Source of the DNA: a virus
Reading direction: 5' to 3' (one strand)
DNA: 64,000 nt
Virus record (IMG/VR): IMGVR_UViG_2643221865_000002
The notes beneath the pieces are model-generated. The model ran no database searches. It was given only the letters and a program-made list of their open reading frames with translations, and was not told the origin of the DNA. The translations under genes and the position numbers were made by a program. Below are positions 3,926 to 61,023 of this stretch, piece after piece. The first letter of the stretch is position 1; each line of letters starts with the position of its first letter.

Positions 3926-3944
3926 CCTCCTTCATGCGCGGATC
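3926..3944 (-). promoter_or_regulatory. gene-proximal conserved motif copy (plus-strand text cctccttcatgcgcggatc)
   Basis: Matches the consensus. It sits in the 227-bp gap upstream of gene 3043..3804. Confidence 0.5.
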
Positions 3945-3980
3945 TCGGCGGTTTCGGATCTACTCGCACCGGGGCGCGCA

Positions 3981-4016
3981 GAAGCCCCGCCGCGGCTGTT
4001 CGCCGGGCGGGGCTTC
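3981..4016 (-). terminator. GC-rich hairpin (11-bp perfect stem GAAGCCCCGCC / GGCGGGGCTTC) after membrane-protein gene 4032..5576
   Basis: Inverted repeat seen directly. There is no U-tract. Confidence 0.45.
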
Positions 4017-4031
4017 CGAGTGGTGCTGGTG

Positions 4032-5576
4032 CTACTTGGTGGCGCGGCGTGCGAGCTCGTCGAGGATGCGGCCGGCGAGGTCGTGCAGCTGCGCGGGGGT
4101 CATGGCGGCAAGGTCGCCGTCCACCTCGACAGGCTCGGAGGTCGAGCCGTCATCGCCAGGCTGGGTGCCGGTGCGGGTGACCTCGTCGCCATTCTTGTCG
4201 TAGAGGATGGCGTCACCGTCCTGCTCGATCACAGCGCGGTAGACGATGTTCTGGCTCTTGCCGATGGAGGCGACCCAGTTTCCGTCCTCACCGGGGACGA
4301 CCTCGAACACCTCCAGGCCGGTAGCCCAGTCAGGCATCCAGGAGTACTGCGTCTCGATCTCCTGGGCGATGGACGAGTTCGCGGAGCGAGTGTGACCCTT
4401 GGCGTACTTGTGGACGGAGAGCGTGTTCAGCTTCCCGGACGTCGACTCGGTGGCGTCGATGTTGGCGATGGCGACCACCGAGGTGGAGGATCCGCGCGGG
4501 GACAGCGGGGTGGAGTATCCGGCGTCGGAGTCTCCGGCGTAGCGGAGGGTGAACTCGGACCCGTTGAAGGAGCCGGTGTCGTTGGCGTTCTCGAACCCGT
4601 TGCGGTTCTGGACATGGTCCTCCCAGGTGCCGACCTTCCCGTCCTTGTTGAGGGCGTCGAGGGCCTGGCGCTGGATGGCGGCGAGGGACTGCGGGTAGAC
4701 GGGGCCGGGGATGTCGGAGGTGTCCGTGAACACGGTCACCTGGCCGGTCTTGCCGTCGTACACGGCGGCGCCGAACACGTTCCACTTTGTGATCCAGAAC
4801 CCGTCGTGGGACTTCAACGGGACGACGACCTTCGGGGTGTCACCGTCGCAGTAGCCGTACACGTCGCCGCTGTCGAAGGTGACGTTCACCGGGGTCTGCG
4901 CGTTGACCATCAGGTCGAGGGACTCATGCGGGAGGACTCCGCCGAGGCGCTGCTCGGCAGCGTTGACGTCGAAGTTGCAGTTCTTCACGTTGGAGGCGTC
5001 GGCAGCACCGAACATGGGAATGTCGATCGTCTGCACCGACTCGTAGCCGACCTGCCAGCCGTTCCGCTCAACGAGGGTGGTCCACAGGCCGGACTTGCCC
5101 TGGTCGATGAGCACCTTCGAGTTCAGTTCGGTGCCGGTGGTGTCACCCATCAGCTTGTGCGCTGATGATGCTGCCACGTCGTACGGGGCGCGGGGTGCGT
5201 AGTCCGGTGCGGGGTCGGTGACGACCTTCACACTGGACACGTACTGGGCGTGGGTGTCGAACGTTGTCCGGACAGCGGTGATGATGCTGAGGACGAGCAG
5301 CAGCAGGATGCCCAGGACGGCGATAGTGCCGATGGCAGCCCCCGGGCCGTTTCCTGCGGAGAAAGCGATGACAGCCACGACGAACAGGGCGACGATCGCA
5401 CCGATGAAGATGAAGACGGGCGCGGCGGAGATGAACACGTCAGCCCAGCCGTGAGCGAGGGATGGGCCCCAGACCAGCCACGGCCACCCGAGGACGGCGA
5501 CGGCAGCGATGGCCATGATGATGTAACCGGTGATGCTGCCGGATTCGGATCGGGACGAGTTGTAGTTGTAGCTCAT
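4032..5576 (-). CDS. integral membrane protein with large extracytoplasmic domain (hypothetical)
   Basis: ATG at 5576 with RBS AGGAAG. There are four N-terminal TM helices, then a 380-aa hydrophilic domain. Codon usage is clean. Confidence 0.7.
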   Translation of the reverse strand: MSYNYNSSRSESGSITGYIIMAIAAVAVLGWPWLVWGPSLAHGWADVFISAAPVFIFIGAIVALFVVAVIAFSAGNGPGAAIGTIAVLGILLLLVLSIITAVRTTFDTHAQYVSSVKVVTDPAPDYAPRAPYDVAASSAHKLMGDTTGTELNSKVLIDQGKSGLWTTLVERNGWQVGYESVQTIDIPMFGAADASNVKNCNFDVNAAEQRLGGVLPHESLDLMVNAQTPVNVTFDSGDVYGYCDGDTPKVVVPLKSHDGFWITKWNVFGAAVYDGKTGQVTVFTDTSDIPGPVYPQSLAAIQRQALDALNKDGKVGTWEDHVQNRNGFENANDTGSFNGSEFTLRYAGDSDAGYSTPLSPRGSSTSVVAIANIDATESTSGKLNTLSVHKYAKGHTRSANSSIAQEIETQYSWMPDWATGLEVFEVVPGEDGNWVASIGKSQNIVYRAVIEQDGDAILYDKNGDEVTRTGTQPGDDGSTSEPVEVDGDLAAMTPAQLHDLAGRILDELARRATK

Positions 5577-5623
5577 GCGGGGTGTTCTTCCTGGGCGGCG
5601 GCACTGTGCTCGCCTGCTCGTTA

Positions 5624-5638
5624 CCTACATGGGCGGAG
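5624..5638 (-). promoter_or_regulatory. conserved motif copy (variant CCGCCCATGTAGGT) upstream of 4032..5576
   Basis: Sequence match, about 50 nt before the start. Confidence 0.5.
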
Positions 5639-5685
5639 ATTCCCGTTTCTGTGCGCGCACGCTGTTTCCAGCTGTTTCGTTCCGG

Positions 5686-5701
5686 TCCGCGCATGGAGGT
5701 G
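5686..5701 (+). promoter_or_regulatory. conserved motif copy in plus orientation (TCCGCGCATGGAGGTG) upstream of plus-strand gene 5749..6114
   Basis: Sequence match. Its orientation follows the gene strand. Confidence 0.5.
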
Positions 5702-5748
5702 GAGAAGAAGAACCTCAACGCCGCAGAAGCGGCAGAACGGATACAACC

Positions 5749-6114
5749 TTGATCGACGGAATCTCCACCATCCACTTCGGGCTCAGCATCGACGACCTCG
5801 CGGAGGTCCCCGAGGTGTGGGGTGCGACCGTGGACGGCGACGGCTGGAACGCATGGGGCGACAAGCCTGGCGTCGACGTCAACGACGCCGACACGCTCCA
5901 CCTGTCCATCACCCGCCACAACGAAGCCATCGACGGCACCGTCCGTACGGTGATCGCCCGCCTCGCGGACAAGCTCGTACAGATGGGCGGCTACGACAGC
6001 CAGGCCGGCATCGTCCTCGTCGTCACCGACTCGGCCGACTGGTCCGAGCAGAAGAAGTCGCTGAAGAAGGGCGAGCCGTGGATTGGCGCCTCCAAGGCGT
6101 TCGTCGCCGCGTAA
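5749..6114 (+). CDS. hypothetical protein (about 121 aa; TTG start guess)
   Basis: The C-terminal 120 aa of ORF 5575..6114 look protein-like (LIDGISTIHFGLSIDDLAEV...). A sense-orientation motif copy lies at 5686-5701 and a strong hairpin terminator at 6132-6170. The N-terminal ORF part is antisense junk. Confidence 0.4.
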   Translation: MIDGISTIHFGLSIDDLAEVPEVWGATVDGDGWNAWGDKPGVDVNDADTLHLSITRHNEAIDGTVRTVIARLADKLVQMGGYDSQAGIVLVVTDSADWSEQKKSLKKGEPWIGASKAFVAA

Positions 6115-6131
6115 CCCCGGCCGCAATCACG

Positions 6132-6170
6132 AAGCCCCGCAACTCCTCGGAGGTGCGGGGCTTTCGTCAT
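6132..6170 (+). terminator. hairpin terminator (10-bp stem AAGCCCCGCA/TGCGGGGCTT, 12-nt loop, TTTCGTC tail)
   Basis: Located 17 nt after the stop of 5749..6114 (+), between convergent genes. Confidence 0.6.
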
Positions 6171-6247
6171 AGCGCCGGCAGAGGTGACGCCCGTGTGGTG
6201 TTGCTGCCGGACGGCGCGTGCGCTGGTCAACGCCGCCCGGCAGGTTG

Positions 6248-6871
6248 TTACTCCGAGACGGTGATGACAGTGTTCAACCGAACGCTGTTCTGCAACGTCT
6301 TGGCGAGCTCGTCGTCGTCCTGGCAGGTGACGTTCACCGTCACCCCGGTGTGGGTGCGGGTGCTGGCACGCATCGTGGTGAACGACACACCGTTCTCCAC
6401 GGTGAGGGTGTCGACGGTGCGGCCGGAGGTCTGCGTCTTGAACGCCGCCCACTGCTCCTGCTTGGTCTCGTTCGGCGCGGAGTCGGAGAACACGGAGTCC
6501 ATCCACTTCTGGGTGGCTTCGCGGTCCTCCCCCAGGTCGGTGATGGCGTCGCCGAGCTCGGACGTCCAGATGTCGGCGGTGCACCACGGCTCGTCGCCGC
6601 CGTCCACGGACTCGAAGCTGGCCCAGTTGAGGGTGGAGGGGTCGGAAGTGCTGACGTCCGCCTTCTTCCACAGGGTGTCGTGGTCGAGGTTGGTGGCGAA
6701 GTCCAGCTGCGAGTTGATGTCCAGGATCCCGCCGCTGGCGAAGTCGAGGTTGGAGATCGACTCCGGCTTCGTCGGCATCCCGTATGACAGGGTCGCGGGG
6801 ACGAGGACGGCGAGAGCTGCAGCGGACGCGACGAAGAAGCCGATGACGCGTTTCGTGTTGGTGGTGGGCAT
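6248..6871 (-). CDS. secreted protein/lipoprotein (hypothetical)
   Basis: The internal ATG (6869-6871) gives MPTTNTKRVIGFFVASAAALAVLVPATLSYG, a signal peptide. A motif copy lies 60 nt upstream. Confidence 0.65.
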   Translation of the reverse strand: MPTTNTKRVIGFFVASAAALAVLVPATLSYGMPTKPESISNLDFASGGILDINSQLDFATNLDHDTLWKKADVSTSDPSTLNWASFESVDGGDEPWCTADIWTSELGDAITDLGEDREATQKWMDSVFSDSAPNETKQEQWAAFKTQTSGRTVDTLTVENGVSFTTMRASTRTHTGVTVNVTCQDDDELAKTLQNSVRLNTVITVSE

Positions 6872-6926
6872 GAGGAGCGGGGGTTCCTTTGCTTGACGTG
6901 GCAGCCCGGTGTTCCGGGCATCATCA

Positions 6927-6940
6927 AGACATGTGGCAAG
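6927..6940 (-). promoter_or_regulatory. conserved motif copy (class 2: TTGCCACATGTCT)
   Basis: Upstream of 6248..6871. Confidence 0.5.
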
Positions 6941-7023
6941 TCCTCGACTGGTCGCCGAACCGCCCTGCGAACCACATCTGGGCAGCACGAAGCCGCCCTT
7001 CCTCCCGTTTGCCCGACGTATGC

Positions 7024-7377
7024 CTAGGAGCCCGGCGTCCAGACCGTCTGGCGGTACCGGTCGACAATCTCAACCTGCCGTTCGCGGGCACGGCTCAACC
7101 GTCGGTACGCCCTCATGCTCAGCACCATGAGGTACACGCCGGCGAGCGTCGCGACAGAGCCGGGGATGCTCACCAGCCGGAGGAAGGACAGCCCGGCGAG
7201 CGACGCGCACAACGACACGACCGTCAAAGTGACAGCCGTCAGAAGCACCCACCGTGCCGACCGGTTCAACATCAGGAACCGGGTGCGGGAAGCCTTCAGC
7301 TCCTCCTCGGCGAGGAACCGCTCCCGCTCAGCAGCGACAACCGCGTCGCCTTCAGCTAAACGCGACAGGTCCGACAT
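7024..7377 (-). CDS. small 2-TM membrane protein
   Basis: 117 aa with a cytoplasmic N-terminus, two hydrophobic helices and a basic C-terminus. Confidence 0.6.
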   Translation of the reverse strand: MSDLSRLAEGDAVVAAERERFLAEEELKASRTRFLMLNRSARWVLLTAVTLTVVSLCASLAGLSFLRLVSIPGSVATLAGVYLMVLSMRAYRRLSRARERQVEIVDRYRQTVWTPGS

Positions 7378-7406
7378 GGCCGCTCCCCCGTTCGATGAGA
7401 GCGAGC

Positions 7407-7757
7407 CTAGCTGCGCCGGCCGCCGAGCGCATCCGGGTACTGCAGTTCGTACTCAGCGAGACGACGGATCGACCTCTGCAGATCCACCCGGTCGGAGTAA
7501 CCGGACGACGCGAAGAACGTGGCGACCACCGCGACGATCGACAGGATCAGGGTGAGCAGACCGTTGAACGGGAACACAGCACCGCTGAGAGACAGGACGA
7601 TGATGGCGACGCCGGCGACAGAGGCCGACACAGCCACCGCGGTCCCTCGGGCGAACAGCTTCTTCGCGACCTGGCGTTCATGGTCAGCGACGGACTTCCG
7701 GGCGAACGTGACGAGCAGCTCCCCGTCAGGCGTGGAGGTGCTCAACTGTTCACCCAC
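7407..7757 (-). CDS. small 2-TM membrane protein (tandem paralog-like of 7024..7377)
   Basis: 116 aa with the same architecture, and the two genes are adjacent. Confidence 0.6.
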   Translation of the reverse strand: MGEQLSTSTPDGELLVTFARKSVADHERQVAKKLFARGTAVAVSASVAGVAIIVLSLSGAVFPFNGLLTLILSIVAVVATFFASSGYSDRVDLQRSIRRLAEYELQYPDALGGRRS

Positions 7758-8227
7758 CAGTTCGACTCGACACGCTCGTGGAACTGCTCCAACGCCTCAG
7801 CGTCGCCGGGGATCCACGCCTCCACCTCCACACGGATGTGCTGCCCGTCCTCCATCTGCGACGGCGGAGTGTACGGGACAGGCTTCGAGTCGGTGTCGGC
7901 TGGAGCCTCGCCGGGTCGGTAGAACTTCGCTGCCTTCAGCCAGCCGGTGAACGAGAACATGTTCTCGTCGCAGCTGCGGAACGTCAGGTCGGTGATCTCG
8001 TAGTGAGCGAGGTACGCACGGTCGCCTTCATCGTCACGTCCGGTGGGGAACTTCATCTCCACCACCCCGTAACCGTTCTGGTCGAGACGCACGTGCGCGC
8101 CGTGCAGAACCGCCACCTTCCGGTCCGTGAACCGAGGCGGACGAGCCGTTGAGGCGATGACCACCTCGGAGGTTCCTCCGTTGGTGGCGTGGTGGAACAG
8201 CGGGTGGGGCTTCACATTGGTCTCCAT
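7742..8227 (-). CDS. hypothetical protein
   Basis: Internal ATG 8225-8227 (METNVKPHP...). A motif copy ends exactly 8 nt upstream of this ATG. Confidence 0.6.
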   Translation of the reverse strand: METNVKPHPLFHHATNGGTSEVVIASTARPPRFTDRKVAVLHGAHVRLDQNGYGVVEMKFPTGRDDEGDRAYLAHYEITDLTFRSCDENMFSFTGWLKAAKFYRPGEAPADTDSKPVPYTPPSQMEDGQHIRVEVEAWIPGDAEALEQFHERVESNWWVNS

Positions 8228-8232
8228 GGCAC

Positions 8233-8247
8233 CAACATGTGCGGATA
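8233..8247 (-). promoter_or_regulatory. conserved motif copy, CACATG-N8-ATG
   Basis: Upstream of 7742..8227 with no RBS; leaderless-like. Confidence 0.55.
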
Positions 8248-8400
8248 CGCGCATTCCTGCTGTCGGAGTACGGGAAGAAGACCGGCGCGATCATCTGGAC
8301 GCTCCCCCATCGGCGACGGTCGTCGCGGCAGCCGAAGCATCTCAAAGGCGAGGCGGCGCCGGAGGCGACGCCGGTCAGGTGCGGGCGCTGACCTGGGCTG

Positions 8401-8967
8401 TCAGGTGTTCGGGTTCCCGGGTATTGGAAGCGGGAGTTCGATGATCGTCGTCCGGATGTCGTGGAGGTCGGTCAGCGGCACGTCGCCGTACCAGGGGTCG
8501 TTCAGTCCGCGCGGGTCCTGGGAGGTGAAGATGCCTTGGCTGCGGATCCAGTCGAGGTCGTCGCCCATGTATGTGACGCCAGCCTTGTACCCGGTGGCGT
8601 CCTGCTCGACCGGCCAGCGGACGTACTGGCCGTGGTCGTCGATGACGAGGCCGAGGTTGAACGGTTGACCGCCGATCGTGCAGACAGTCTCCGTTTTGAG
8701 GTTCCGTTCCACCCAGTCGAGCGGGACGTCGAAGAGGGTGCTGCCCGGGAACCGGTACCGGTTCCTGTCCAGGTAGGGAGCTGCGGCGCGTTCGGTCACC
8801 CAGCCGAGCTCTGCGGCTTGGGCGGGGCTGGCGACAAGGGCGAGGGTGACGTCCGGCCAGGTCCAGAACATCTGCATGTCCACGTAGAACCAGTGGCCAC
8901 GGACGAGCGCGTAGGTACCGCTGGGCACGACGTCGGCGCCGGGCCAGATCTCCGAGATGTCGGTCAT
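8401..8967 (-). CDS. hypothetical protein
   Basis: ATG at 8965-8967 (MTDISEIW...). Coding looks clean. Confidence 0.55.
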   Translation of the reverse strand: MTDISEIWPGADVVPSGTYALVRGHWFYVDMQMFWTWPDVTLALVASPAQAAELGWVTERAAAPYLDRNRYRFPGSTLFDVPLDWVERNLKTETVCTIGGQPFNLGLVIDDHGQYVRWPVEQDATGYKAGVTYMGDDLDWIRSQGIFTSQDPRGLNDPWYGDVPLTDLHDIRTTIIELPLPIPGNPNT

Positions 8968-9491: not shown

Positions 9492-10177
9492 CGGGCTGCT
9501 CCGTTCTCGGCGGCGTCGTGTCGTTGGGCGGCGAGCCAGCGGGAGTGGTTGATGGTGGTGGCGATCTCGTCGAAGTCGTCGAATAGGTTCAGGCCGCGGT
9601 GGCGGACATCCCAGAGGATGTGCACCAGGGAGGTGTGATCCTTCTCCCACGGGTCGAACGGCGGCTCGAACCCCTTCTCGGCGGCGGCCCGGTCTCCGCT
9701 GGTGGTGTTGCCTGGCTTTCCGCGTTCGGCGGTGCCGAGCTTCTTGTCGGCTTCGGCGAGACGTTCGGTGAGGTCCGCGATCTGCTGTTCCATGTCGGCG
9801 ATGCGGCGCGCCGGTGCGAGGTGGTCGGTGCCAGCTGTCGGCTGCTGTGTCTCGTCGGTGACGAGGATGGAGGCTTCGCTGTTCACGAGCTGGCTCGGTT
9901 GGATGACGTTCTTGTCGAGGAGCACCGCGAGGGTCGCCTCGGCGATCGCCGAAGCTGTGGCGGGTGAAGCGGGAACCAGTGTGCTGGCTGTGGTGGTCAG
10001 GCGGTCACGGAGCCACTCCAGAGGCTGGAAGGAGATGCGGGCGGCAGCCAGCGCATCGCCGGAGAACCAGACGGCATCGTCATCGGACGGGCGTGCCGTC
10101 ACGTGGAGGGTCTGTCGGTGGAACGCTGCGACGATCCTCATGCGGATCATCTCGTCTGATTCGGTGAGGGTGTTCAT
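9488..10177 (-). CDS. hypothetical protein, paralog of 8964..9491 (shared C-terminal domain PPF(D/N)xWExDHT(G/S)L(I/V)H(I/V)LW...SRWLAA)
   Basis: ATG 10175-10177 with ATGA overlaps at both ends. The C-terminal 60 aa align to the downstream gene. Confidence 0.55.
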   Translation of the reverse strand: MNTLTESDEMIRMRIVAAFHRQTLHVTARPSDDDAVWFSGDALAAARISFQPLEWLRDRLTTTASTLVPASPATASAIAEATLAVLLDKNVIQPSQLVNSEASILVTDETQQPTAGTDHLAPARRIADMEQQIADLTERLAEADKKLGTAERGKPGNTTSGDRAAAEKGFEPPFDPWEKDHTSLVHILWDVRHRGLNLFDDFDEIATTINHSRWLAAQRHDAAENGAAR

Positions 10178-10392
10178 GCTGCTCCGATTGTGGTTGTGCC
10201 GGTCAGGCAGTCGCGGCATACGAGGGACTGCGGGACGGTTTCGGTGTTGCTGCCGAGGAGGATGCCTCCGCCGCACTTGACGGGCTGGAAGTCCGACTCG
10301 GCCGGCCCTGCCAGCAGGTGGTAGATGTGGGCGTCCGGTTCCGGGTACTTGGGTACCCGCTCCGCGATCACGCGTCGCATGCGTTCAGCCAT
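10174..10392 (-). CDS. small Cys-containing protein (possible zinc ribbon)
   Basis: 72 aa with RBS GAAGGAG 4 nt before the ATG. A motif copy lies at 10415-10430. Confidence 0.5.
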   Translation of the reverse strand: MAERMRRVIAERVPKYPEPDAHIYHLLAGPAESDFQPVKCGGGILLGSNTETVPQSLVCRDCLTGTTTIGAA

Positions 10393-10414
10393 CGTCGACT
10401 CCTTCTTCTCGCAC

Positions 10415-10430
10415 CCTACATGCGCGGTTG
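10415..10430 (-). promoter_or_regulatory. conserved motif copy (CCGCGCATGTAGGGTG) preceded by CCGAAAC
   Basis: Upstream of 10174..10392. Confidence 0.55.
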
Positions 10431-10450: not shown

Positions 10451-11056
10451 TCAGTCTGTCTTGACGGATACGTGGGTGACCAGGTCGGCGAAGGCTACGT
10501 CGAAGTTGCCGCCTGCGGCGCAGGTCAGGTCGGTGAAGAACGCGTAGCCGGACGTGGAGAACACACGGGCGCTTGTCACCCATTTGGCGCCGTCGTCAGC
10601 CGCGCCCTGCAATGACCGGATGTCGGCTTTCTCGTTCCCGTACACGTAGGTGGCGTTCTTACCGATCTGGTTCACTGTCGCTTCCGGCGCCCCGTACAGC
10701 TTCGCGAGGTACCGGTCGGTGGCCTTCTTGTCGTCGCCGTCGGTGGCGACGTCCGACGGTTTCGGGCCGGAGTGGATGGTGGCGACGCAGGACCCGTTCG
10801 AGTCCTTGTAGCTGCGCTCACCGATCCGTTCGTCTTTCAGGTCCCAGCCGGCATCCTCGAGGGTGTTCTCCAGCACCGGCTCAACCGTCTCCGGGAGCTT
10901 CTCCGCACCGGACCAGGTGAGGTCCAGCACGGTTCCTTTCGGGACTGCGGTGGCTTTCACTTCGTCTGGCATCTGCACTTGGACGCAACCGGAACAGGCG
11001 ATCGCCACGGCGGCGGCCGCAGCAGCGAAAGCCGCGATGGTCGATGGTGCGCGCAT
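10451..11056 (-). CDS. lipoprotein (hypothetical)
   Basis: Signal peptide with lipobox AIACSGC. A motif copy lies 40 nt upstream. Confidence 0.7.
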   Translation of the reverse strand: MRAPSTIAAFAAAAAAVAIACSGCVQVQMPDEVKATAVPKGTVLDLTWSGAEKLPETVEPVLENTLEDAGWDLKDERIGERSYKDSNGSCVATIHSGPKPSDVATDGDDKKATDRYLAKLYGAPEATVNQIGKNATYVYGNEKADIRSLQGAADDGAKWVTSARVFSTSGYAFFTDLTCAAGGNFDVAFADLVTHVSVKTD

Positions 11057-11094: not shown

Positions 11095-11110
11095 GGACAT
11101 GTGGCGGATC
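11095..11110 (-). promoter_or_regulatory. conserved motif copy (class 2)
   Basis: Upstream of 10451..11056. Confidence 0.5.
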
Positions 11111-11606
11111 AGCGCTTGGCGAGAGTTCCGGCGGGGAGTTTCGGGGACGGTCCAGGCCAGGTTCCCAGCTTGTCCATGCTGTTCAGCTGGTCAGGCGCGA
11201 TGAAGATGACCAGCGGGTCCGGGTCCTTGGCCGGTTCGACCCATCCTCCGTCGGCGAGAGCGTCGGCGATGTTGAAGTCACCGTCGGCTCCGGGGACGAC
11301 TGTGAGGATCAGCCCCTGGTCGGGCTTCGTGTCGTCGACGGACCATGCGAGCTTCAACAGGTACTCGGCGAACTGTTCAGGCTTCTGGACGGTGTACCCG
11401 TCTTCGATGAATGCTGTGACAGCGATGTCGTGCCCGTCACCGAATGTTTCCACGTCCACTGATGTGGATCTGAGACCGGCGATGCCTGCGAGTGCGTCGC
11501 CGGCCGCGACTGCTGTCCCGTTCGACCCGGATGGCGTACATCCCGTCAGCGCGATCAGCAGGGCTGCACCTGCAACGGCTGCCGCGATTCTGCCGGCGGA
11601 TCTCAT
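11109..11606 (-). CDS. lipoprotein (hypothetical)
   Basis: Internal ATG 11604-11606 gives MRSAGRIAAAVAGAALLIALTGC (lipobox LTGC). ATGA overlap with the upstream gene. Confidence 0.65.
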   Translation of the reverse strand: MRSAGRIAAAVAGAALLIALTGCTPSGSNGTAVAAGDALAGIAGLRSTSVDVETFGDGHDIAVTAFIEDGYTVQKPEQFAEYLLKLAWSVDDTKPDQGLILTVVPGADGDFNIADALADGGWVEPAKDPDPLVIFIAPDQLNSMDKLGTWPGPSPKLPAGTLAKR

Positions 11607-12019
11607 GCCGCCGCCTTCGAGATGCTTCGAGGGCCCCACCCGAGCCTGCTGATTTCGTCTGCTGCTGCCAGGAAGATGCTGTCTGGTGCGGCGCTGGCGC
11701 CGACCGTGGAGGTCGCCAGCAACGACGATGTGAGCGAGCCGGCCAGATCATCCCGCGCCTGCGGCGTGGTGACGATCCGGGTGGGTGACCTCCCCCAGCC
11801 TGCGGCACTGACGGCGCCGGCGATCCGGCGGAACTGGCGTCGCTCATGCTCCGGGATGTCGATCCATTCCAGTTCGCCGCCCTGGGATGAGTGCAGCTGC
11901 ACAGCGAGCTCCTCCATCTGTTCGATGGTGGGTTCGGCGATGTCTGGCGTGGCGGTGAACAGGGCGATGATCTCGTCGATCGGGTCGTCGAGGTCTGAGA
12001 GGTCGGCTACGGAAGTCAT
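11603..12019 (-). CDS. hypothetical acidic protein
   Basis: 138 aa. A motif copy ends exactly 8 nt before the ATG. Confidence 0.6.
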   Translation of the reverse strand: MTSVADLSDLDDPIDEIIALFTATPDIAEPTIEQMEELAVQLHSSQGGELEWIDIPEHERRQFRRIAGAVSAAGWGRSPTRIVTTPQARDDLAGSLTSSLLATSTVGASAAPDSIFLAAADEISRLGWGPRSISKAAA

Positions 12020-12023: not shown

Positions 12024-12040
12024 CTCTCATGTGCGGACTG
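12024..12040 (-). promoter_or_regulatory. conserved motif copy, N8 before ATG
   Basis: Upstream of 11603..12019. Confidence 0.55.
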
Positions 12041-46807: not shown

Positions 46808-46827
46808 GCCGTCGTAGGTGTGCGGGG

Positions 46828-49066: not shown

Positions 49067-49222
49067 GCGGGTGCTCCTCTCAGCGCCGCGAACCGCGGAC
49101 AGAGCGTAGGTGTGCGGCAGAGCCTCCGTTCACCTCGCTGTCCCTGGCGTCCCCATCCAACGAGAAACCCCGTCAACCGGTGTGGTTGGCGGGGCTCCTA
49201 TGGGTGCTGTCAGGTGTGCGGT

Positions 49223-51424: not shown

Positions 51425-51622
51425 AGGTGGATCCTTCCAGATAGGTGGGGTGGTGCATGTTGGGCGGTGATCCGCCGATGGCTTCATTCGCAGTGCAGCG
51501 CAGCACCAGGCAAATCCGGCGCTCCGACATTGCCACGTCGGTCATCTAGGTGTGCGGTGACGCACAGACCGTGCCGTGCACTGGGGGTGCGAGTGCGGCC
51601 TCCAGACGGTGGGCCTCGGCGA

Positions 51623-51940: not shown

Positions 51941-51967
51941 GAGGGTGATGCTCCTTCTTTGTCACTA

Positions 51968-51982
51968 CCCACATGCGCGGAT
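51968..51982 (-). promoter_or_regulatory. conserved motif copy (CGCGCATGTGGGTAGTGAC)
   Basis: Upstream of 51623..51940. Confidence 0.5.
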
Positions 51983-52423: not shown

Positions 52424-52897
52424 TCACTTGCGGGGGCCGATGCCGAAACGGCGTTGGGTCCACACTTCGACGTCGCACTGGTGCGATTGGGCGAGCGCGG
52501 CAACGACAGGTTCGACGTCGGCCCAGTCGAGCCCGCCGACACCGCATCCGATGCGTGGCATGGCGACGGTCTTGAAGTGGATCTCGTCGGCGTGGTCCAA
52601 AGCTTTCCGGAGCGACTCCTCCAGCCATTCGAGGCGGGCGTTCGCGCCGCGGCGGTCCTGGGAGGCGAGGTTGAACACGGCGGTGCGGTTCTCGATCGGA
52701 GGCCAGTAGAAGAACTGCCCCGGCTTGAACGTCTGGTTGGCGCAGATGCGGAGGTACATGTCGTGCATCATCGGGAACCGGTCACGGAACGTCGGGGCGA
52801 TGCCGGACCACATCTGACCGTCCACGTTGACCCCTTGCATCAGGGCAGGGGCAGTCGAGGTGAACAGGTCACCGGTCTTCAGGATGAGGGCGCCCAT
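52424..52897 (-). CDS. macrodomain protein (paralog of 46828..47280)
   Basis: GDLFTSTAPALMQGVNVDGQMWSGIA and VAMPRIGCGVGGLDWADVEPV. RBS GAAAGGA. A motif copy lies at 52926-52940. Confidence 0.55.
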   Translation of the reverse strand: MGALILKTGDLFTSTAPALMQGVNVDGQMWSGIAPTFRDRFPMMHDMYLRICANQTFKPGQFFYWPPIENRTAVFNLASQDRRGANARLEWLEESLRKALDHADEIHFKTVAMPRIGCGVGGLDWADVEPVVAALAQSHQCDVEVWTQRRFGIGPRK

Positions 52898-52925: not shown

Positions 52926-52940
52926 ACCATGTGCGGAGCA
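52926..52940 (-). promoter_or_regulatory. conserved motif copy
   Basis: Upstream of the second macro gene. Confidence 0.5.
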
Positions 52941-53546: not shown

Positions 53547-54114
53547 TCAGGCGGCCTTTCGCTGCTCCGGGAACTCGTGCAGGTACCCGCGGGTTTCCGC
53601 CCGGCGGAGGACAGTGGAGTGGTGCACGTCGATGGTGCGGGCGTACTCGGTGACACCCATCGCCCAGACGCCGGCGATGACGTCGGCTTTGTCGGGGTCA
53701 GGTCGGTCATCAGTGCGGCCGGCGGTGTGCAGGATGCAGGTCAGGTGCAGGGCGCTGCGGAGCTTCGTGCCGCACCAGCAGGCGTACTGCTTCGCAGTCC
53801 TCGACTTCGGGAGCGGATCCACACCACGGCGAGTCAGCTCCTTACGGCAGGCGTTGCCCGAGACACCGCAGACACGGGACAGCTCCTCCCAGGAGTCGTA
53901 CTCGACGATGTCGAGCATCTCCGCGGTGGACGGGTAGTTCGCCTTCTCGCGGCGGCCTGCGGTCTCGTATTCGGTGATGTCCCGGCGGGCGAGCTCCTTG
54001 CGGACACTGGTCGCGGAGACGCCGACACGGCGGCCCATCTCAGCGACTCCGTGCTCGGCGATGATCGCGAGCATGATCTTGGTGTCCGGGTAGGCGGTTT
54101 TCTTCTGCGGCATG
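53547..54114 (-). CDS. DNA-binding protein with two HTH-like repeats (transposase/sigma region-4-like)
   Basis: LAIIAEHGVAEMGRRVGVSATSVRKELARR and MLDIVEYDSWEELSRVCGVSGNACRKELTRR. RBS GAAGGAG 8 nt before the ATG. Confidence 0.5.
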
Positions 54115-54138
54115 ATGCTGCTCCTTCTTCTCGGAGCA

Positions 54139-54152
54139 TTCATGCGCGGAGC
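54139..54152 (-). promoter_or_regulatory. conserved motif copy
   Basis: 27 nt upstream of the HTH gene ATG. Confidence 0.5.
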
Positions 54153-54693: not shown

Positions 54694-55248
54694 CTACCTC
54701 TGGGCGGCAGCCTTCCGCGCCTGCCTGGCAAGCCTGTCCGCTCGTTCGTTCAGCGGATCACCTGAGTGACCCTTCACCCGGACGAACACCACCGTGCGTT
54801 CCGACATGAACGCGTCGATGTACGCCATCTCGGCATCCGCGCCGCGCTTCACCCAGGCGTTACGGCGTTCCCCGGACTGGTACATGCGGATCGCTTGGAG
54901 CGCCTCCTTGCAGTCGCAGAACACCGTGATCCGCTCGTACAGGGCATGCGCTTCCAACGCTTTCGCGATCGCCCGGAGCTCCGCACCGAACGACGACTCG
55001 GACGCCGGTCCGGAACCCTGCCCGCCGATGCTGGACACCCACCCGTAGCCACCGCGCCCGTACCCGCCTTGATCGGGCTCCCCGGAACCGTCAGTGGCGA
55101 CGGTGATGGACAGGCGAGGGATCGGGCGGCCAGCGATCGGCTGGTCAGGGCCGACAGCAGGTTCAGGGCGGGCCCAACGGGTCCGCGGAACGTAGGTGGA
55201 CGCGATCGACGGCAACGGGGCGGCTGGTGGGCGCGGGATTGTCACCAC
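54694..55248 (-). CDS. rnhA: ribonuclease HI with Pro-rich N-terminal extension
   Basis: TDGSG, ELRAI, FCDCKEA and KGHSGDPLNERADRLA motifs. Confidence 0.8.
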   Translation of the reverse strand: MVTIPRPPAAPLPSIASTYVPRTRWARPEPAVGPDQPIAGRPIPRLSITVATDGSGEPDQGGYGRGGYGWVSSIGGQGSGPASESSFGAELRAIAKALEAHALYERITVFCDCKEALQAIRMYQSGERRNAWVKRGADAEMAYIDAFMSERTVVFVRVKGHSGDPLNERADRLARQARKAAAQR

Positions 55249-55478
55249 GGCAGGGGCGGCACGCCGACGAAGATGACCGTGTAGCCGTCCTCGGCGAGTG
55301 ACTCAGCGACGTACTCGGGGCTCACCTCGCGGCAGTCACCGCAGTCGTTCTCGAACCAGCGGCCGTCCTGCTTCACCAACGTGGTCAGATCGGGGTCGGT
55401 GAGGTGGCCGACGAAGGCGTTCTCGTAGAGGTCGCCGAGGTAGGCGACGATCGCTTCGTGGCTGGTGAGGGTGGGCAT
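55242..55478 (-). CDS. small hypothetical protein
   Basis: 78 aa with RBS GAAGGA 7 nt before an ATG that coincides with a CCGCACATG copy. It overlaps rnhA by 7 nt. Confidence 0.55.
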   Translation of the reverse strand: MPTLTSHEAIVAYLGDLYENAFVGHLTDPDLTTLVKQDGRWFENDCGDCREVSPEYVAESLAEDGYTVIFVGVPPLPW

Positions 55479-55516
55479 GTGCGGTCCTTCAGGTTGGCTT
55501 ATCCGTCACCTTCATG

Positions 55517-55533
55517 CGCGGAGTTGCCCGGAA
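55517..55533 (-). promoter_or_regulatory. conserved motif copy (TCCGCGCATGAAGGTGAC)
   Basis: Upstream of 55242..55478. A second CCGCACATG overlaps that start codon. Confidence 0.5.
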
Positions 55534-56582: not shown

Positions 56583-57911
56583 CTAGGCGTCGAACTCGCA
56601 GAGGTAGCGGACGCGGACCTGGTTCGTATCGAAAACGATGGCTTCGTGGTTCCGCACTCCAGCGGTCCCCGGCTTCACGTTGATGGAGTTCCACGGCTTA
56701 CCGAACTTGTTGACCGTGGAGTGGGCTTTCGGCCAGTCGGAGTAGTGAGAGGGACGGTACTCGGATCCCATCGCTACGTCGTTGAGGAGCATGAAGCAGT
56801 TGTTGTCTCGGCCGCCGGAGGTCCAGTAGCCATTCGAGTAGTTGAGGCTCTTCGTAGAGTCGAGCGAAAGATACAGACCGTCGCCGAACATGCGCCCGGC
56901 GATCTGGATACCTGAACCTGACCGCGGCGGGACGAACAGCCCCTTCTGGAGGATGGAGAGCAAGTTTGCGGCGCGGGTCCCGTGCCACATCTGCTGCTCG
57001 TTTCGGATCTCCGCAGCGATCCTCTTGTAGGTGGCGGCTCCGACCGGATCGACAAGCTCGAAGACATGCTTCAGGTTCAACTTGGCTGACGTGTGCATGC
57101 CGTTCTTCGTCTTCGCATACCGCTCTTCGATCCGCTTGAAGACGGCCCCGCCGTCGGCGACGGCGCGAACCTTGTACTTGAAGAGGTTGTCGTATTCGTT
57201 GCCGTCGACGTCGTCGATCGCTGCGGTGGTGGCAGCGGCGAGCTGGGTGTTGAAGAACTGGACGGAGTCGCGGAGGGAGTCGAGCAGCTCGTGCTGCTTC
57301 TGGAAGGTGTTGTCGCGGTTGAAGAATGTGGATGCCCATCCGGCGTTGCGGCCGATGTTCTGGGGGACGAGGGTGAGGTAGTCCTCCAGCAGCCGGGTGC
57401 TGGAGGTGTCTTTGACGCCGCCGGCCTGTTCGATCTGCGTGAGGAGGCCGCGGGCTTCGCTGATGGAGTAGTTGGTGATCAGGCCGAGCGGAGTCTTCAC
57501 CTGGCCGCTGGTGTCGACGGTGATCTTTCCGCCGGAGAGGGTGGCGATGTCGTGGGCGTTCACACGACAAATACGCTCGATCAGGTCAGCGACTCGGGTG
57601 TCGGTGCGGGCCTTCCCCTTCGTCAGGGCAGTCTTCGCGATCGTGGTGATCTGCGTGTTCGCGGCCACTGACGTGGTCGCTGTGGGCGGGGCTGCGATCG
57701 CGACCTTCTTGTAGCCCTTCCGCTCCTTCGCGTAGACGGCGTTGTCGAAACCGAGCCGTCCGGTCTTCTCAATAGACATCTGACCGTCGGCGCCGACACG
57801 ACCCCAACGCTTCGTCACGGTGATCCCATCCGAGGACAATTTCACCTCGTAGAACTTGTTGTTGTTCGCTTGGGAATCCACGTAAATCAGCATCGTTGTC
57901 GTCTCATTCAT
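56583..57911 (-). CDS. poly(ADP-ribose) polymerase homolog: WGR domain + helical domain + PARP catalytic domain
   Basis: WGR: KFYEVKLSSDGITVTKRWGRVG. Catalytic: MWHGTRAANLLSILQKGLFVPP, GRMFGDGLYLSLDSTKSLNYS, HEAIVFDTNQVRVRYLCEF (the H-G-S/T...Y...E signature of PARP1). The ATG is 8 nt after a motif copy. Confidence 0.8.
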   Translation of the reverse strand: MNETTTMLIYVDSQANNNKFYEVKLSSDGITVTKRWGRVGADGQMSIEKTGRLGFDNAVYAKERKGYKKVAIAAPPTATTSVAANTQITTIAKTALTKGKARTDTRVADLIERICRVNAHDIATLSGGKITVDTSGQVKTPLGLITNYSISEARGLLTQIEQAGGVKDTSSTRLLEDYLTLVPQNIGRNAGWASTFFNRDNTFQKQHELLDSLRDSVQFFNTQLAAATTAAIDDVDGNEYDNLFKYKVRAVADGGAVFKRIEERYAKTKNGMHTSAKLNLKHVFELVDPVGAATYKRIAAEIRNEQQMWHGTRAANLLSILQKGLFVPPRSGSGIQIAGRMFGDGLYLSLDSTKSLNYSNGYWTSGGRDNNCFMLLNDVAMGSEYRPSHYSDWPKAHSTVNKFGKPWNSINVKPGTAGVRNHEAIVFDTNQVRVRYLCEFDA

Positions 57912-57913: not shown

Positions 57914-57930
57914 CACCTACATGTGCGGAC
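57914..57930 (-). promoter_or_regulatory. conserved motif copy, N8 before PARP ATG, preceded by CCGAAAAC
   Basis: Sequence match. Confidence 0.55.
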
Positions 57931-57963: not shown

Positions 57964-57977
57964 TCCGCTCATGTCAG
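57964..57977 (+). promoter_or_regulatory. motif-like copy in plus orientation (TCCGCTCATGTCAG)
   Basis: Upstream of plus-strand gene 58020. Confidence 0.4.
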
Positions 57978-58019: not shown

Positions 58020-58481
58020 ATGCCCATCCGCCACAAGCTCACGATCGCCGCTCCCGGCATCGGAAACACCTTCACCGTCGACTCGTTCAACAAGGCCATG
58101 GAAGACGTCGACATCTGGCTGAACTGGTCCACCGACCTCGACGCGTCCGCCTTCCTCACCATCAACGACGACGAGGTGACCGCGTACTGGGAATCCAACT
58201 ACGGCGACTGGGCCGAAGCTGAGGTGTACGCCATCGAGCAAACCGACGCGAACGACGAACTCACCGTCACCCTCGACTCGTACGACACCGACAACGACGC
58301 CCGCGCCGACATCCGCGTCTACCGCGGCGGGCAGGAGACCATCGAGGACGGCAAGGTGACGGCCGTCGTCCCCGCGGTGTTCGGTCGACTGATGGCGGAC
58401 CTGCGCGACGCTCTCGAGAGCGGTGGCGACGCAGATGTGGTCGCAGCATCCCGAGCACTTTCGGAAGCGTTCCCCCGGTAG
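58020..58481 (+). CDS. hypothetical acidic protein
   Basis: 153 aa. A sense motif-like copy lies at 57964-57977. Confidence 0.55.
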   Translation: MPIRHKLTIAAPGIGNTFTVDSFNKAMEDVDIWLNWSTDLDASAFLTINDDEVTAYWESNYGDWAEAEVYAIEQTDANDELTVTLDSYDTDNDARADIRVYRGGQETIEDGKVTAVVPAVFGRLMADLRDALESGGDADVVAASRALSEAFPR

Positions 58482-59771: not shown

Positions 59772-59777
59772 GATCTG

Positions 59778-59793
59778 GTCGCCACATGACTTC
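59778..59793 (+). promoter_or_regulatory. conserved motif copy in plus orientation (class 2)
   Basis: 13 nt before ATG 59802. Confidence 0.5.
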
Positions 59794-59801
59794 TCCCCGG
59801 T

Positions 59802-60368
59802 ATGAACCACACCACCGAGAAAGGCTTCCCCTTGTCTGATTTCAAGCCCACCTTCGCCCCGTTCGCCTGGGAGCCGCGCCGCGTCATCATCTACGCCCTC
59901 GCCGCAGCGTTCGGTGTCACCGCCGCCTACGCCGGAGTGTCCGCCTACCAGGACGACGTCCGCAGCGCCGAGAACACCCTCGCCGGCAGCATCCACGAAG
60001 CCCACGACCGCGCTGACCTCCTCGCCCTGAAGGCTGAGACCGGCCGGGCCTACGTGGAGGAAGCGAACCGGTACGCAGCACAGAACACCGACAGCGTCGA
60101 CAAGCGCACCGTCACCGCCCTGTACGACGCGATCGACGCTGCCGCCTTCCGGATCGACTTCGCCGACAAGGCTGCAGCCGCGACGGACATCGCAGCGGAC
60201 AACGCCGCCGGCATCACCGGGAACCCCGCCGGGATCCGCGACGCAGCGAAGAACCTCGACAAGCTGATCTCGGACGACCCGAAAGTCACGGGCGCCATCG
60301 ACGCTGTGAAGACCGCCGTGCAGGCAGTCAACCTCGCCAACATGGCGGGGGTCAGCGCTCACCGCTGA
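59802..60368 (+). CDS. membrane-anchored hypothetical protein
   Basis: A sense class-2 motif copy lies at 59778-59793, and a terminator hairpin follows at 60381-60432. Confidence 0.55.
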   Translation: MNHTTEKGFPLSDFKPTFAPFAWEPRRVIIYALAAAFGVTAAYAGVSAYQDDVRSAENTLAGSIHEAHDRADLLALKAETGRAYVEEANRYAAQNTDSVDKRTVTALYDAIDAAAFRIDFADKAAAATDIAADNAAGITGNPAGIRDAAKNLDKLISDDPKVTGAIDAVKTAVQAVNLANMAGVSAHR

Positions 60369-60380
60369 CCAGCAACAACA

Positions 60381-60432
60381 GACGCCGGCCTTGGCATCAC
60401 CTCATGGTGGTCATGGCCGGCGTTCTGTTTGT
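60381..60432 (+). terminator. hairpin (9-bp stem ACGCCGGCC/GGCCGGCGT, 24-nt loop) + TCTGTTTGTGGTG tail
   Basis: After 59802..60368, between convergent genes. Confidence 0.5.
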
Positions 60433-60452
60433 GGTGATGCCGTTCTAGTCGA

Positions 60453-60956
60453 CTAGACGGAGCGGATGTAAACCCGCGCAGCACATCCGCATGGGTTCCC
60501 GTCCTCCGGGCAGGAGTACTGCTCGACAACCGAGTCGGCACGCCAGAACCCGGGGATGGTGACGACCGGCCGGAGACCGTTCGCGGTGTTCGCTGACCCT
60601 GCCGGTGCGCGTCCGCCGCGCACCCAAGCGCACGCTGCCACCTGCACGCCCGGGTGAGCTTCGACGACAGCGCCGACGAGCGCGGTTCCGACCCCTTCAC
60701 CGCGTGCCGAGGGGATGACGACAAGCGATTTGACGAACACAGCATCATCGCTGACGAGTTTCGACACAGATCCCCACTGGGCAGGCGGCACAGCTTCGGG
60801 CAGCGCAGCGCTGGTGACCGCGCCGACCATCACCCAGCCGTCGAACGCAGCGAACCCCTCCAGACGTTCAGGGGCGTGGCTGCTGAGCTCGGACTGGAAC
60901 AGGGTCTCGACGGCGGCTCGGTCATCTTCGACAAGCGCTCTGAACGTGATTGGCAT
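60453..60956 (-). CDS. GNAT family N-acetyltransferase
   Basis: Motif A VIPSARGEGVGTALVGAVVEA. Internal ATG (MPITFRAL...). A motif copy lies 10 nt upstream. Confidence 0.55.
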   Translation of the reverse strand: MPITFRALVEDDRAAVETLFQSELSSHAPERLEGFAAFDGWVMVGAVTSAALPEAVPPAQWGSVSKLVSDDAVFVKSLVVIPSARGEGVGTALVGAVVEAHPGVQVAACAWVRGGRAPAGSANTANGLRPVVTIPGFWRADSVVEQYSCPEDGNPCGCAARVYIRSV

Positions 60957-60964
60957 ACCGGGTA

Positions 60965-60980
60965 GGCATGTGGCGGCACC
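60965..60980 (-). promoter_or_regulatory. conserved motif copy (class 2, N10 before GNAT ATG)
   Basis: Sequence match. Confidence 0.5.
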
Positions 60981-61006
60981 TCGAATGCGACCCGATCGGG
61001 GATTCC

Positions 61007-61023
61007 TGTGCGGTCCGCACATG
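61007..61023. promoter_or_regulatory. palindromic head-to-head motif pair TGTGCGG-T-CCGCACA, with the plus-orientation copy upstream of the collagen gene
   Basis: Seen directly. It sits in the divergent region between 60956(-) and 61091(+). Confidence 0.5.

Follow-up and report, generated by a model that had tools for sequence, protein, structure and literature searches.

A recurrent promoter-like motif ahead of transcription units in a family of giant plasmid-like elements of Microbacteriaceae

Motif sites in the window

The window analyzed here, a 64,000-nucleotide (nt) stretch of DNA filed as IMG/VR virus record IMGVR_UViG_2643221865_000002, carries a short motif with the core CCGC(A/G)CATG that recurs ahead of its genes and is considered below as a candidate core promoter of a family of plasmid-like elements. 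The GC content of the window is 65%, and from 1 to 57.9 kb its genes are almost all encoded on the minus strand. A protein encoded on a 701-kb NCBI contig of Leifsonia sp. Leaf264 matches the helicase of the window with 100% identity, which identifies Leaf264 as the source strain, and a Logan contig of 123.5 kb (run ERR1103913) covers the window to ~44.5 kb and runs past its start. The encoded proteins include proteins with RCC1, BNR, He_PIG, and collagen repeats, a flotillin-like protein, a PARP with a WGR domain, two Macro-domain proteins, an RNase H, a DnaQ-like exonuclease, an HNH protein, several DnaJ-domain proteins, a DUF2637 protein, a methyltransferase-helicase of 1,560-1,665 amino acids (aa), and many ORFans.

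The motif is present far above chance at the sites where an earlier reading of the bare sequence (the sequence-only reading) had placed it. The exact word CCGCRCATG occurs 25 times against 2.52 expected from dinucleotide-preserving shuffles (maximum of 7 in 100 shuffles), and CCGCACATG with at most one mismatch occurs 52 times against 24.6 expected, a count reached in 0 of 100 shuffles. An unbiased 8-mer scan of the window under a third-order Markov model returned CGCACATG, CCGCACAT, and GCCACATG, among others, as the top over-represented words behind a poly-C run: CGCACATG with 15 copies on the minus strand (1.4 expected) and one on the plus strand, CCGCACAT with 16 (1.9 expected), and GCCACATG with 11 (1.4 expected).

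Three classes of sites were distinguished, giving ~38 credible sites in total, close to the 40 or more copies first claimed. Class 1, T-CCGC(A/G)CATG-(a/t)aGGtg, accounts for 25 sites, 21 ahead of minus-strand genes and 4 ahead of plus-strand genes; class 2, CGCCACATG, for 10 sites (8 minus, 2 plus); and class 3, CCGCACACC-TA, for 3. Placement was counted on a hand-refined gene list covering 89% of the window. Of the 46 core matches of the three classes, 42 (91%) fall in the non-coding 11%. Core matches with a gene at most 130 nt away have the orientation of that gene, in keeping with the earlier claim that orientation follows the downstream gene. The claim that almost every gene is preceded by a copy was too broad: 36 of the 71 predicted genes are so preceded. 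Most of the motif-less genes overlap a same-strand upstream gene or lie <50 nt behind it, so the pattern is about one motif per transcription unit. Back-to-back copies separate the genes in five of seven divergent pairs, and the 58-nt divergent spacer at 25423-25480 contains two back-to-back cores and little else. Four matches within open reading frames (ORFs), at 13394, 15620, 46038, and 12152, look like chance occurrences, and the matches at 3802-3810 and 55476-55484 are start-codon contexts only. Two further CCGCACACC matches (42099-42107 and 49213-49221) have no co-oriented gene downstream, and one of these is antisense within a plus-strand ORF of the Logan contig (~41827-42207) that was missed in the gene list used.

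In the aligned class-1 sites, CCGC-CATG is invariant, T precedes the core in 19 of 24, and a weaker (a/t)aGG(t)g follows it. Offset 8 behind the core is a pyrimidine in 20 of these 24 sites, and offset 9 is a purine in all of them (A in 10, G in 14). An ATG begins exactly 8 nt behind the core in 8 of the 25 class-1 sites, each time opening an ORF of 105-562 codons. Three of these minus-strand cores, at 8236-8244, 12028-12036, and 45874-45882, precede the putatively leaderless genes 7742-8227, 11603-12019, and 45350-45865, respectively. The others on that strand lie ahead of the UvrD-like helicase gene 33958-35646 (core 35655-35663, conserved at the orthologue in the related loci L004-L007 introduced below), gene 40769-41086 (core 41095-41103, with an orthologous site at 4252 in L004), the Macro-domain gene 46828-47280 (core 47289-47297, which has the best position weight matrix score), and the PARP gene 56583-57911 (core 57920-57928, divergent partner of the core at 57965). 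The plus-strand core at 38625-38633 has the same spacing to the ATG of the DUF2637 gene 38642-39562, and L004 contains an orthologous site. For the helicase, the gene call made independently on the Logan contig, which comes from this strain as well, also starts at the ATG 8 nt behind the core.

The remaining class-1 sites are followed by a short leader, often starting G-A-GAAGAAGGAG, with its own well-spaced Shine-Dalgarno sequence; at sites away from the start codon the distance is 23-128 nt and a separate AAGGAG is present. The fixed short distance to the start codon in the sequence-only reading is thus correct for 8 of 25 class-1 sites (8 nt) and 4 class-2 sites (10 nt) and does not apply elsewhere. 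Several class-1 cores are followed by a GAGAAGAAGGAG-type leader, namely the minus-strand cores at 10419-10427 (26 nt to the ATG of 10174-10392), 20521-20529 (28 nt to the ATG of 19956-20492), and 54141-54149 (27 nt to the ATG of the helix-turn-helix [HTH] ORFan 53547-54113). Other leaders are GGAGAAGAAC behind the core at 31797-31805, upstream of 31089-31757, and AAAGAAGGAG behind that at 51972-51980, 31 nt from the ATG of 51623-51940 (both minus). Minus-strand cores at 41731-41739, 52928-52936, and 55513-55521 lie 30, 30, and 34 nt, respectively, from the ATGs of 41410-41700, the Macro-domain gene 52424-52897, and 55242-55478. Longer distances on this strand are found for the CCGCGCATG core at 3933-3941 (128 nt upstream of 3043-3804), the core at 29109-29117 (56 nt upstream of 28681-29052), the core at 33870-33878 (124 nt upstream of the DnaJ-domain gene 32648-33745), and the core at 43826-43834 (81 nt upstream of the flotillin-like gene 42302-43744); the core at 17097-17105 lies ahead of the methyltransferase-helicase gene 12352-17034, whose start codon is uncertain. 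A minus-strand CCGCCCATG core at 5628-5636, 51 nt upstream of a conserved 514-aa gene (4032-5576), is the divergent partner of the plus-strand CCGCGCATG core at 5687-5695, which has a GAGAAGAAG leader and lies 53 nt upstream of ORF 5749-6114. Also on the plus strand are the class-1 variant CCGCTCATG at 57965-57973, with CAGAACC upstream, a GTGAAGAAG leader, and 46 nt to gene 58020-58481, and the core at 61015-61023, 67 nt upstream of the collagen-repeat gene 61091-63520 and the divergent partner of the core at 60975.

Class-2 cores stand 10 nt before an ATG at four sites and 13 nt before it at one, after CCGG(C/T). The four are the back-to-back cores of the 58-nt spacer, at 25433-25441 (minus, gene 24673-25422) and 25462-25470 (plus, HAD hydrolase gene 25481-26116), and the minus-strand cores at 41399-41407 (gene 41134-41388) and 60967-60975 (gene 60453-60956); the fifth is the plus-strand core at 59780-59788 (gene 59802-60368). 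The other class-2 cores, all on the minus strand, are at 11098-11106 (41 nt to 10451-11056), 23767-23775 (23 nt upstream of the BNR-repeat gene 20570-23743), 38569-38577 (65 nt upstream of 37847-38503 and divergent partner of 38625), 46380-46388 (41 nt upstream of 45910-46338), and 43810-43818, which lies in tandem 16 nt downstream of the class-1 core at 43826-43834 and shares its target gene. The three class-3 cores, also on the minus strand, are CCGCACACC-TAC at 46817-46825, with the ATG of 46403-46807 9 nt on, and those at 49109-49117 (42 nt upstream of 48248-49066) and 51549-51557 (61 nt upstream of the He_PIG-repeat gene 49223-51487).

The putative 5' ends of short-leader transcripts (for example, 20490-20512, 10393-10410, 54114-54132, and 51941-51963) share G-A-GAAGAAGGAG, and relatives have gtGAAGAAg at the leader position; this shared beginning may be a signature of the initial transcribed region or of a translation enhancer.

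Conservation in relatives and the nature of the element

Relatives were collected as loci around helicase orthologues from assemblies and genomes; the strain-specific core is T-CCGCRCATG or TCCGCGCATAG, for Leaf264 and Curtobacterium sp. MCSS17_016. Unbiased 8-mer scans placed a lineage's own variant of the core among the top words in L003, L005, L006, L007, L009, and L010, and a 7-mer scan did likewise in L004. The core is CTGCGCATG in L004 (helicase identity, 71%), CCGCGCATG in the metagenome contigs L005 and L006 (102 and 247 kb; 58% and 57%) and in L007 from Agromyces humi (51%), CCGGGTATG in Microbacterium esteraromaticum (43%), and CCGCGCATA in the Curtobacterium plasmids pS16 and pCPAA3 (41-42%). 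The 8-nt spacing from core to ATG is kept across these relatives. Upstream of the helicase in five elements whose proteins are 51-71% identical, conservation is limited to the core, the 8-nt spacing, and ATGACC, and the flanks have diverged; in L004, core and spacing are likewise kept at the DUF2637 gene and at a small membrane-protein gene. The pattern GCRCATG-N8-ATG occurs nine times in L005, six in L006, four in L004, and three in L007, and was absent from 76 loci around distant helicase homologues from Streptomyces, Nocardia, Psychrobacter, and others.

The most extensive set of sites was found in the complete sequence of pS16 (NZ_CP126255.1), a 546-kb circular plasmid of Curtobacterium, in which CCGCGCATA occurs 121 times against 1.3 expected. 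An ATG or GTG lies at 8 nt in 48 of these copies, 44 of which open ORFs of at least 50 codons, and all 11 plus-strand sites checked by hand coincide with an annotated start. The other 73 copies have a pyrimidine at offset 8 (75%) and a purine at offset 9 (88%), the same start-point signature as in Leaf264, and the 8-nt spacer has no conserved sequence. Words of the Leaf264 type show no enrichment in pS16 (7 observed, 8.9 expected). Few or no copies of the motif are found in the flagellar cluster, the Tad/type IV secretion genes, and the Rep/Par regions of this plasmid.

In Leaf264, the upstream element cGAAACC stands 7 nt before the T and stops 8 nt short of the core's first C. The bipartite promoter of the sequence-only reading is not supported for the family: the GAAAC-like element is real in the window but belongs to the Leaf264 lineage only, as sequence logos of pS16 (121 sites) and of L005-L007 (35 sites) contain no conserved upstream element.

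The family consists of giant plasmids with a phage-like cargo of nucleic-acid metabolism genes. The closest annotated relatives are Curtobacterium megaplasmids of 546-608 kb (helicase identity, 42%). Plasmid functions encoded by pS16 include RepA, ParA, Tad/type IV secretion-like genes, and FtsK/SpoIIIE and coupling proteins, along with a complete flagellar cluster. Its nucleotide metabolism genes comprise nrdHIEF, thymidylate synthase, dUTPase, and thymidine and dTMP kinases; together with DnaE, two ligases, RtcB, Thg1, and SmpB, they make up a set resembling that of jumbo phages. LigA and SbcCD are also among the annotated genes. More than 80% of pS16 genes are hypothetical, with hundreds of small ones in long co-directional blocks, and a stretch of skipped locus tags at 479-493 kb (unlisted genes) probably holds RNA genes. 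A phage origin was considered and rejected: a phage collection yielded no nucleotide match, the helicase was not found in viral contigs, and three motif scans of viral contigs gave single chance-level matches, with the exception of L137 described below.

The 514-aa protein encoded at 4032-5576 (minus) has a 47% identical counterpart in pS16 and ~50 homologue clusters, mostly from metagenomes. It matches no Pfam or NCBIfam family, and its AlphaFold model (predicted local distance difference test score, 87.5) has no match in the PDB at E<0.01. It is a hallmark gene of the plasmid family, and the fold of its product is apparently new. On either side of the helicase lie genes for four paralogous J-domain (DnaJ N-terminal) proteins (31852-32598, 32648-33745, 35684-36682, and 36695-37819), and the order of J-domain, helicase, and DUF2637 genes is syntenic in L004-L007 and, in part, in pS16.

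Repeated words were also encountered elsewhere. L137 (IMGVR_UViG_2866004666_000003), a 45-kb contig classed as viral, contains six copies of tgCCGCGCATG in 9.3 kb (noted at 5800-8460), four of which have an ATG at 8 nt, including back-to-back pairs; its proteins have no detectable similarity to those of the window. The promoter type may extend beyond helicase-bearing plasmids. In the 2-Mb contig L008 of Agromyces sp. Root81, GGGCTTTTCT and AGAAAAGCCC are 25-50-fold over-represented, with 5-6 copies in 21 kb. A Mycobacterium intracellulare megaplasmid was set aside as carrying a different feature, with its word CCCTCATACTTT clustered in one inverted-duplicated non-coding stretch: this word occurs 11 times in a gene-free region of ~2 kb (25860-27760 of L160, plasmid NZ_CP084587.1), which looks like an array of iterons, an origin, or small RNAs, not a per-gene promoter.

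Promoter interpretation and its alternatives

The reading that we favor, at a probability of roughly 0.6, is that the motif is the core promoter of a family of ~0.1-0.7-Mb plasmid-like elements of Microbacteriaceae and is read by a dedicated factor. The block T-CCGC(A/G)CATG would lie at about -18 to -9, and transcription would start at the purine 9 nt behind it. At about one-third of sites this purine would itself belong to the start codon, as its A (or G), and the mRNA would be leaderless; the other transcripts would carry a 20-130-nt leader with its own Shine-Dalgarno sequence, in Leaf264 often with G-A-GAAGAAGGAG first. The block would be recognized by the host core RNA polymerase together with a dedicated, most likely element-encoded sigma-like or adaptor protein, not by the housekeeping sigma factor alone. 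Promoter and factor would coevolve, as the single-base lineage variants CCGCACATG, CTGCGCATG, CCGCGCATG, CCGCGCATA, and CCGGGTATG imply. The cGAAACC element (~-32 to -26) and the class-2 and class-3 variants would be additions of the Leaf264 lineage, perhaps an activator site or separate regulatory classes.

An element-specific, non-housekeeping promoter, as had been proposed from the window alone, is supported by the leaderless-start spacing, the pyrimidine/purine pair at 8/9 nt, the divergent copies, and the conservation at orthologues. That some units are leaderless is suggested by the 8-nt spacing at 8 window and 48 pS16 sites, by agreement with gene calls, and by the conserved N-terminal MT(I/L/M)T codons of the helicases. 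With the start at offset 9, positions -12 to -7 would read CAT(G/A)NN, with an invariant A at -11 and T at -10. This sequence departs from the -10 element of housekeeping sigma-70/sigma-A promoters (TANNNT), as -7 is A in 15, G in 6, and T in 3 of 24 sites, and pS16 sites likewise have no preference for T at -7. A TTGACA-like -35 element 16-18 nt upstream is equally lacking in the pS16 and L005-L007 logos, and a consensus scan of the window from 35 to 55 kb found no sigma-70-type promoter in these 20 kb. From the missing T at -7 and the lack of a family-wide -35 element, we infer a dedicated specificity factor, and the lineage-specific single-base differences in the core suggest that it coevolves and is element encoded.

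Other promoter classes fit no better. An extracytoplasmic function (ECF) sigma promoter has GGAAC at -35 and CGT at -10, ~16-17 nt apart; here the AAC lies 10 or 14 nt from the CGC or CAT of the core, and the GAAAC-like element occurs in Leaf264 only. In the register of the putative start, cGAAACC sits 13 nt from position -12, which is too close for a normal -35 element. Promoters of sigma-28 (FliA/WhiG), TAAA-N15-GCCGATAA, are not matched either, as TAAA is absent and the core CCGCGCAT(A/G) corresponds to GCCGATAA only partly; moreover, the pS16 flagellar cluster beside the sole annotated sigma gene is almost motif free, and the upstream regions of flagellin and flgB lack the motif. A pairing of TAGGTG as a -10 element with GAAACC at 17-nt spacing was rejected, since it would move the start into the ATGACC that is conserved, and coding, in leaderless genes.

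Several known systems offer partial parallels. T4 late promoters (TATAAATA) are -10-only promoters read by gp55, a phage-encoded sigma factor, and resemble the present motif in having a single short conserved element near -10, no -35, and dozens of copies serving one mobile element, with host core polymerase redirected by an element-encoded factor (as we infer here). In contrast to T4, a lytic phage, the carrier is a plasmid, neither a gp55-like nor any other sigma gene was found, the block would lie further upstream (-18 to -9), and Leaf264 has an upstream element. SigN of Bacillus subtilis pBS32 is a recognizable sigma-70 family protein whose promoters have -35 and -10 elements; as with pBS32, a large plasmid would possess its own promoter class, orthogonal to the host, whereas no such gene is linked to the motif here and the motif covers most transcription units. 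Promoters of single-subunit phage RNA polymerases of the T7 class extend from -17 to +6 and share with the motif a contiguous, near-invariant block from about -17/-18, a fixed point of initiation, a high number of copies per element, and base changes by which specificity is switched between lineages; unlike them, conservation here ends at about -8 and not through +1, and no T7-like or other polymerase gene or, by a crude regular-expression search, catalytic motif turned up in the window or in complete pS16. Ordinary actinobacterial leaderless promoters have TANNNT 6-7 nt upstream of the start codon. The hexamer at -12 to -7 similarly lies 6 nt before the A of ATG with an invariant A at -11, but it reads CAT(G/A)NN, usually with C at -12 and without T at -7, its information resides in CCGC(A/G) at -17 to -13, and one sequence is reused >100 times per replicon.

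Mycobacteriophage motifs provide a further comparison. Cluster A stoperators are repressor sites that block elongation and stand at no set distance from transcript starts. In Cluster K, start-associated sequences (SAS) include the ribosome-binding site and lie 3-8 nt from the start codon. Both are asymmetric motifs on a 13-bp scale that occur tens of times per genome in short gaps between genes, following the direction of transcription or standing just before start codons, and the present motif is similarly asymmetric, multicopy, and oriented with transcription. In contrast to stoperators, the fixed pyrimidine/purine signature at offsets 8/9 and the leaderless spacing argue for a relation to transcript starts. 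The likeness to SAS drawn in the sequence-only reading fails because the motif keeps its position relative to the putative transcript start, not to the start codon or ribosome-binding site: the start codon is 8 nt away in about one-third of sites and 23-128 nt away elsewhere, with a separate AAGGAG, and copies stand back to back.

The closest published analogue is the plasmid-specific motif of pMP7017, a Bifidobacterium breve megaplasmid, which spans 34 bp and occurs at 19 promoters serving ~24% of the plasmid's genes (PMC10832533). It was reported to be absent from chromosomes and present in related plasmids; it contains a canonical TATACT -10 element, its transcripts have 5' untranslated regions, and its authors read it as a transcription-factor site on housekeeping promoters (PMC10832533). 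Both cases involve an actinobacterial megaplasmid in which one conserved motif occupies the -10 region of many genes and recurs in related plasmids. In contrast to pMP7017, the present motif is of unrelated sequence, has no canonical -10/-35 (no TANNNT is found in register with the core), probably serves leaderless genes at one-third or more of its targets, and reaches 121 copies in pS16. A link to pMP7017 through another locus, L013, was rejected, as this locus has a GC content of 42% and no pMP7017 motif. A full-text literature search with the core words returned primers and unrelated sequences only.

Several points weigh against the favored reading, most of them concerning the factor. Pfam and NCBIfam scans revealed no sigma factor or polymerase among the predicted window proteins of substantial size, and no ECF sigma gene in the window. 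The entire pS16 annotation lists only one sigma factor, next to the flagellar genes, and no single-subunit polymerase; a crude regular-expression search of pS16 and the window for polymerase catalytic signatures (T7 motif A or C, NADFDGD-type) was negative, and 11 annotated regulators of pS16 that were compared with the window all lacked a homologue there. The single dedicated factor of the sequence-only reading is thus putative, with no sigma or polymerase gene found for it in the window. In addition, the start point is placed from spacing only; core variants and hosts vary together, so that the factor could be host encoded; confinement to the element is observed only within pS16, and Leaf264 was read over ~74 kb of a contig of at least 701 kb; and the class-1 geometry does not account for the 10-nt spacing of class 2 or for the class-3 sites.

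Two proteins of the window were tried as the factor and rejected. The HTH protein at 53547-54113, which had been put forward as a candidate, is an ORFan whose sole match among 5.8 billion proteins is itself, with a Pfam hit below cut-off only; relatives with the motif encode no homologue of it, and it is therefore not a family-wide recognition factor. The 514-aa hallmark protein, modeled as three long helices at the N terminus followed by a domain rich in beta structure, does not resemble a sigma factor or polymerase. A tentative further step, which we regard as somewhat less likely than not, is that the elements encode a new sigma-like family or polymerase adaptor without detectable sigma similarity that would redirect host RNA polymerase to a -10-only, 10-bp promoter (-18 to -9), give the plasmid an orthogonal and largely leaderless set of >100 transcription units, and be retuned from lineage to lineage, for example, by G to A at -9 or C to T at -16.

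The precedent of pMP7017 (PMC10832533), a plasmid-confined motif over -10, lends itself to a different explanation, in which the block is the operator of an element-encoded global repressor or activator acting over weak housekeeping-sigma promoters. The near invariance of 9-10 bases is more typical of an operator or a phage-type promoter than of ordinary sigma promoters, the block is asymmetric, multicopy, and transcription oriented as are L5 stoperators, and the extra upstream element of Leaf264 could be a second protein site. Against this, no canonical -10 or -35 is found in register (T at -7 in 3/24; none in the 20-kb sigma-70 scan); the 58-nt spacer, which requires two promoters, has the block as its only conserved sequence, and the pyrimidine/purine pair, always at 8/9 nt, links the block to the start point itself. 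The block is also not palindromic, so that a typical dimeric HTH operator is unlikely. The operator explanation is thus unlikely overall, although operator and promoter functions are not mutually exclusive. Also unlikely is a promoter of a host-encoded alternative sigma factor of Microbacteriaceae, adopted by the elements and used on chromosomes as well. It would explain why no sigma or polymerase gene on the elements is tied to the motif, why core variants follow the host genus where known (Leifsonia, Agromyces, Curtobacterium, and Microbacterium), and why the viral-classed L137, with unrelated proteins, has the CCGCGCATG-N8-ATG form. However, helicase-homologue loci on probably chromosomal contigs of Agromyces sp. 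Root81 (2.0 Mb) and Microbacterium oral taxon 186 (1.0 Mb) show no enrichment, the flagellar, secretion, and Rep/Par cargo clusters of pS16 lack the motif, and an alternative sigma regulon of >100 promoters on one replicon would be unusual.

Action at the RNA level, through a processing site that frees leaderless mRNAs or a translation signal similar to the Cluster K SAS, is very improbable. The motif does lie directly upstream of many start codons, the 8 nt from core to ATG in Leaf264 are purine/G rich (AGGTG, GGAGG) and resemble a Shine-Dalgarno sequence, and co-directional gene blocks without obvious terminators would permit long transcripts. Yet each gene of a divergent pair needs a promoter, and the back-to-back motifs are the only sequences shared there; the other ~two-thirds of sites lie 23-128 nt from the start codon with a separate, well-spaced AAGGAG; the GG-rich stretch, 1-2 nt from the ATG, is too close for a working Shine-Dalgarno sequence; and the 8-nt spacer is not conserved in pS16, nor did any Rfam family match in the window. 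A functionless compositional or repeat artefact, such as a codon-bias word or remnants of a dispersed repeat, might be entertained on the grounds that high-GC genomes yield spurious over-represented words and that a few matches lie within ORFs. It is refuted by the 10-fold to ~90-fold excess over Markov or shuffle expectation, the concentration of 91% of matches in 11% of the sequence, the strict orientation and fixed spacing, and the conservation at orthologues with diverged flanks. Thus, the divergent pairs, the variable distance to the start codon, and the statistics contradict both the RNA-level and the artefact explanations.

Element-specific promoter sets are already known from phages (T7-type and T4 late) and from at least one plasmid with its own sigma factor (SigN of pBS32), as is the pMP7017 motif; the present case differs in its non-canonical, -10-only architecture, its leaderless geometry, its much higher copy number, and its conservation, with single-base lineage switches, across a family of Microbacteriaceae megaplasmids. 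These giant plasmids, little studied so far, carry tRNA arrays, SmpB, nucleotide-metabolism and replication genes, and hundreds of ORFans. If the promoter reading is true, a single private type of promoter would drive most of the genes on them, as in phages, and the single published plasmid-confined promoter motif (pMP7017) would be extended to a different and far more extreme case. By a simple rule, the motif would then allow transcription units, and the true start codons of leaderless genes, to be annotated in these replicons. It would also supply a test case for the insulation of megaplasmid expression from the host and a natural series of promoters whose specificity switches with single bases, of use as orthogonal expression parts in high-GC Actinobacteria. 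Finally, it would provide a handle for finding a new specificity factor, whose identity is the main prize.

Other features of the window

Two features unrelated to the motif were noted. At 5829-5916 (minus), ARAGORN called an 88-nt tRNA-Val(GAC) that overlaps a predicted plus-strand ORF; Rfam returned no tRNA at gathering score, and the call is probably a false positive. A run of ~20 G on the plus strand (44495-44515) encodes Pro8 near the N terminus of the minus-strand gene 43932-44522, and the Logan contig of the same strain ends exactly at this run, a break that probably reflects an assembly or sequencing problem at the homopolymer.

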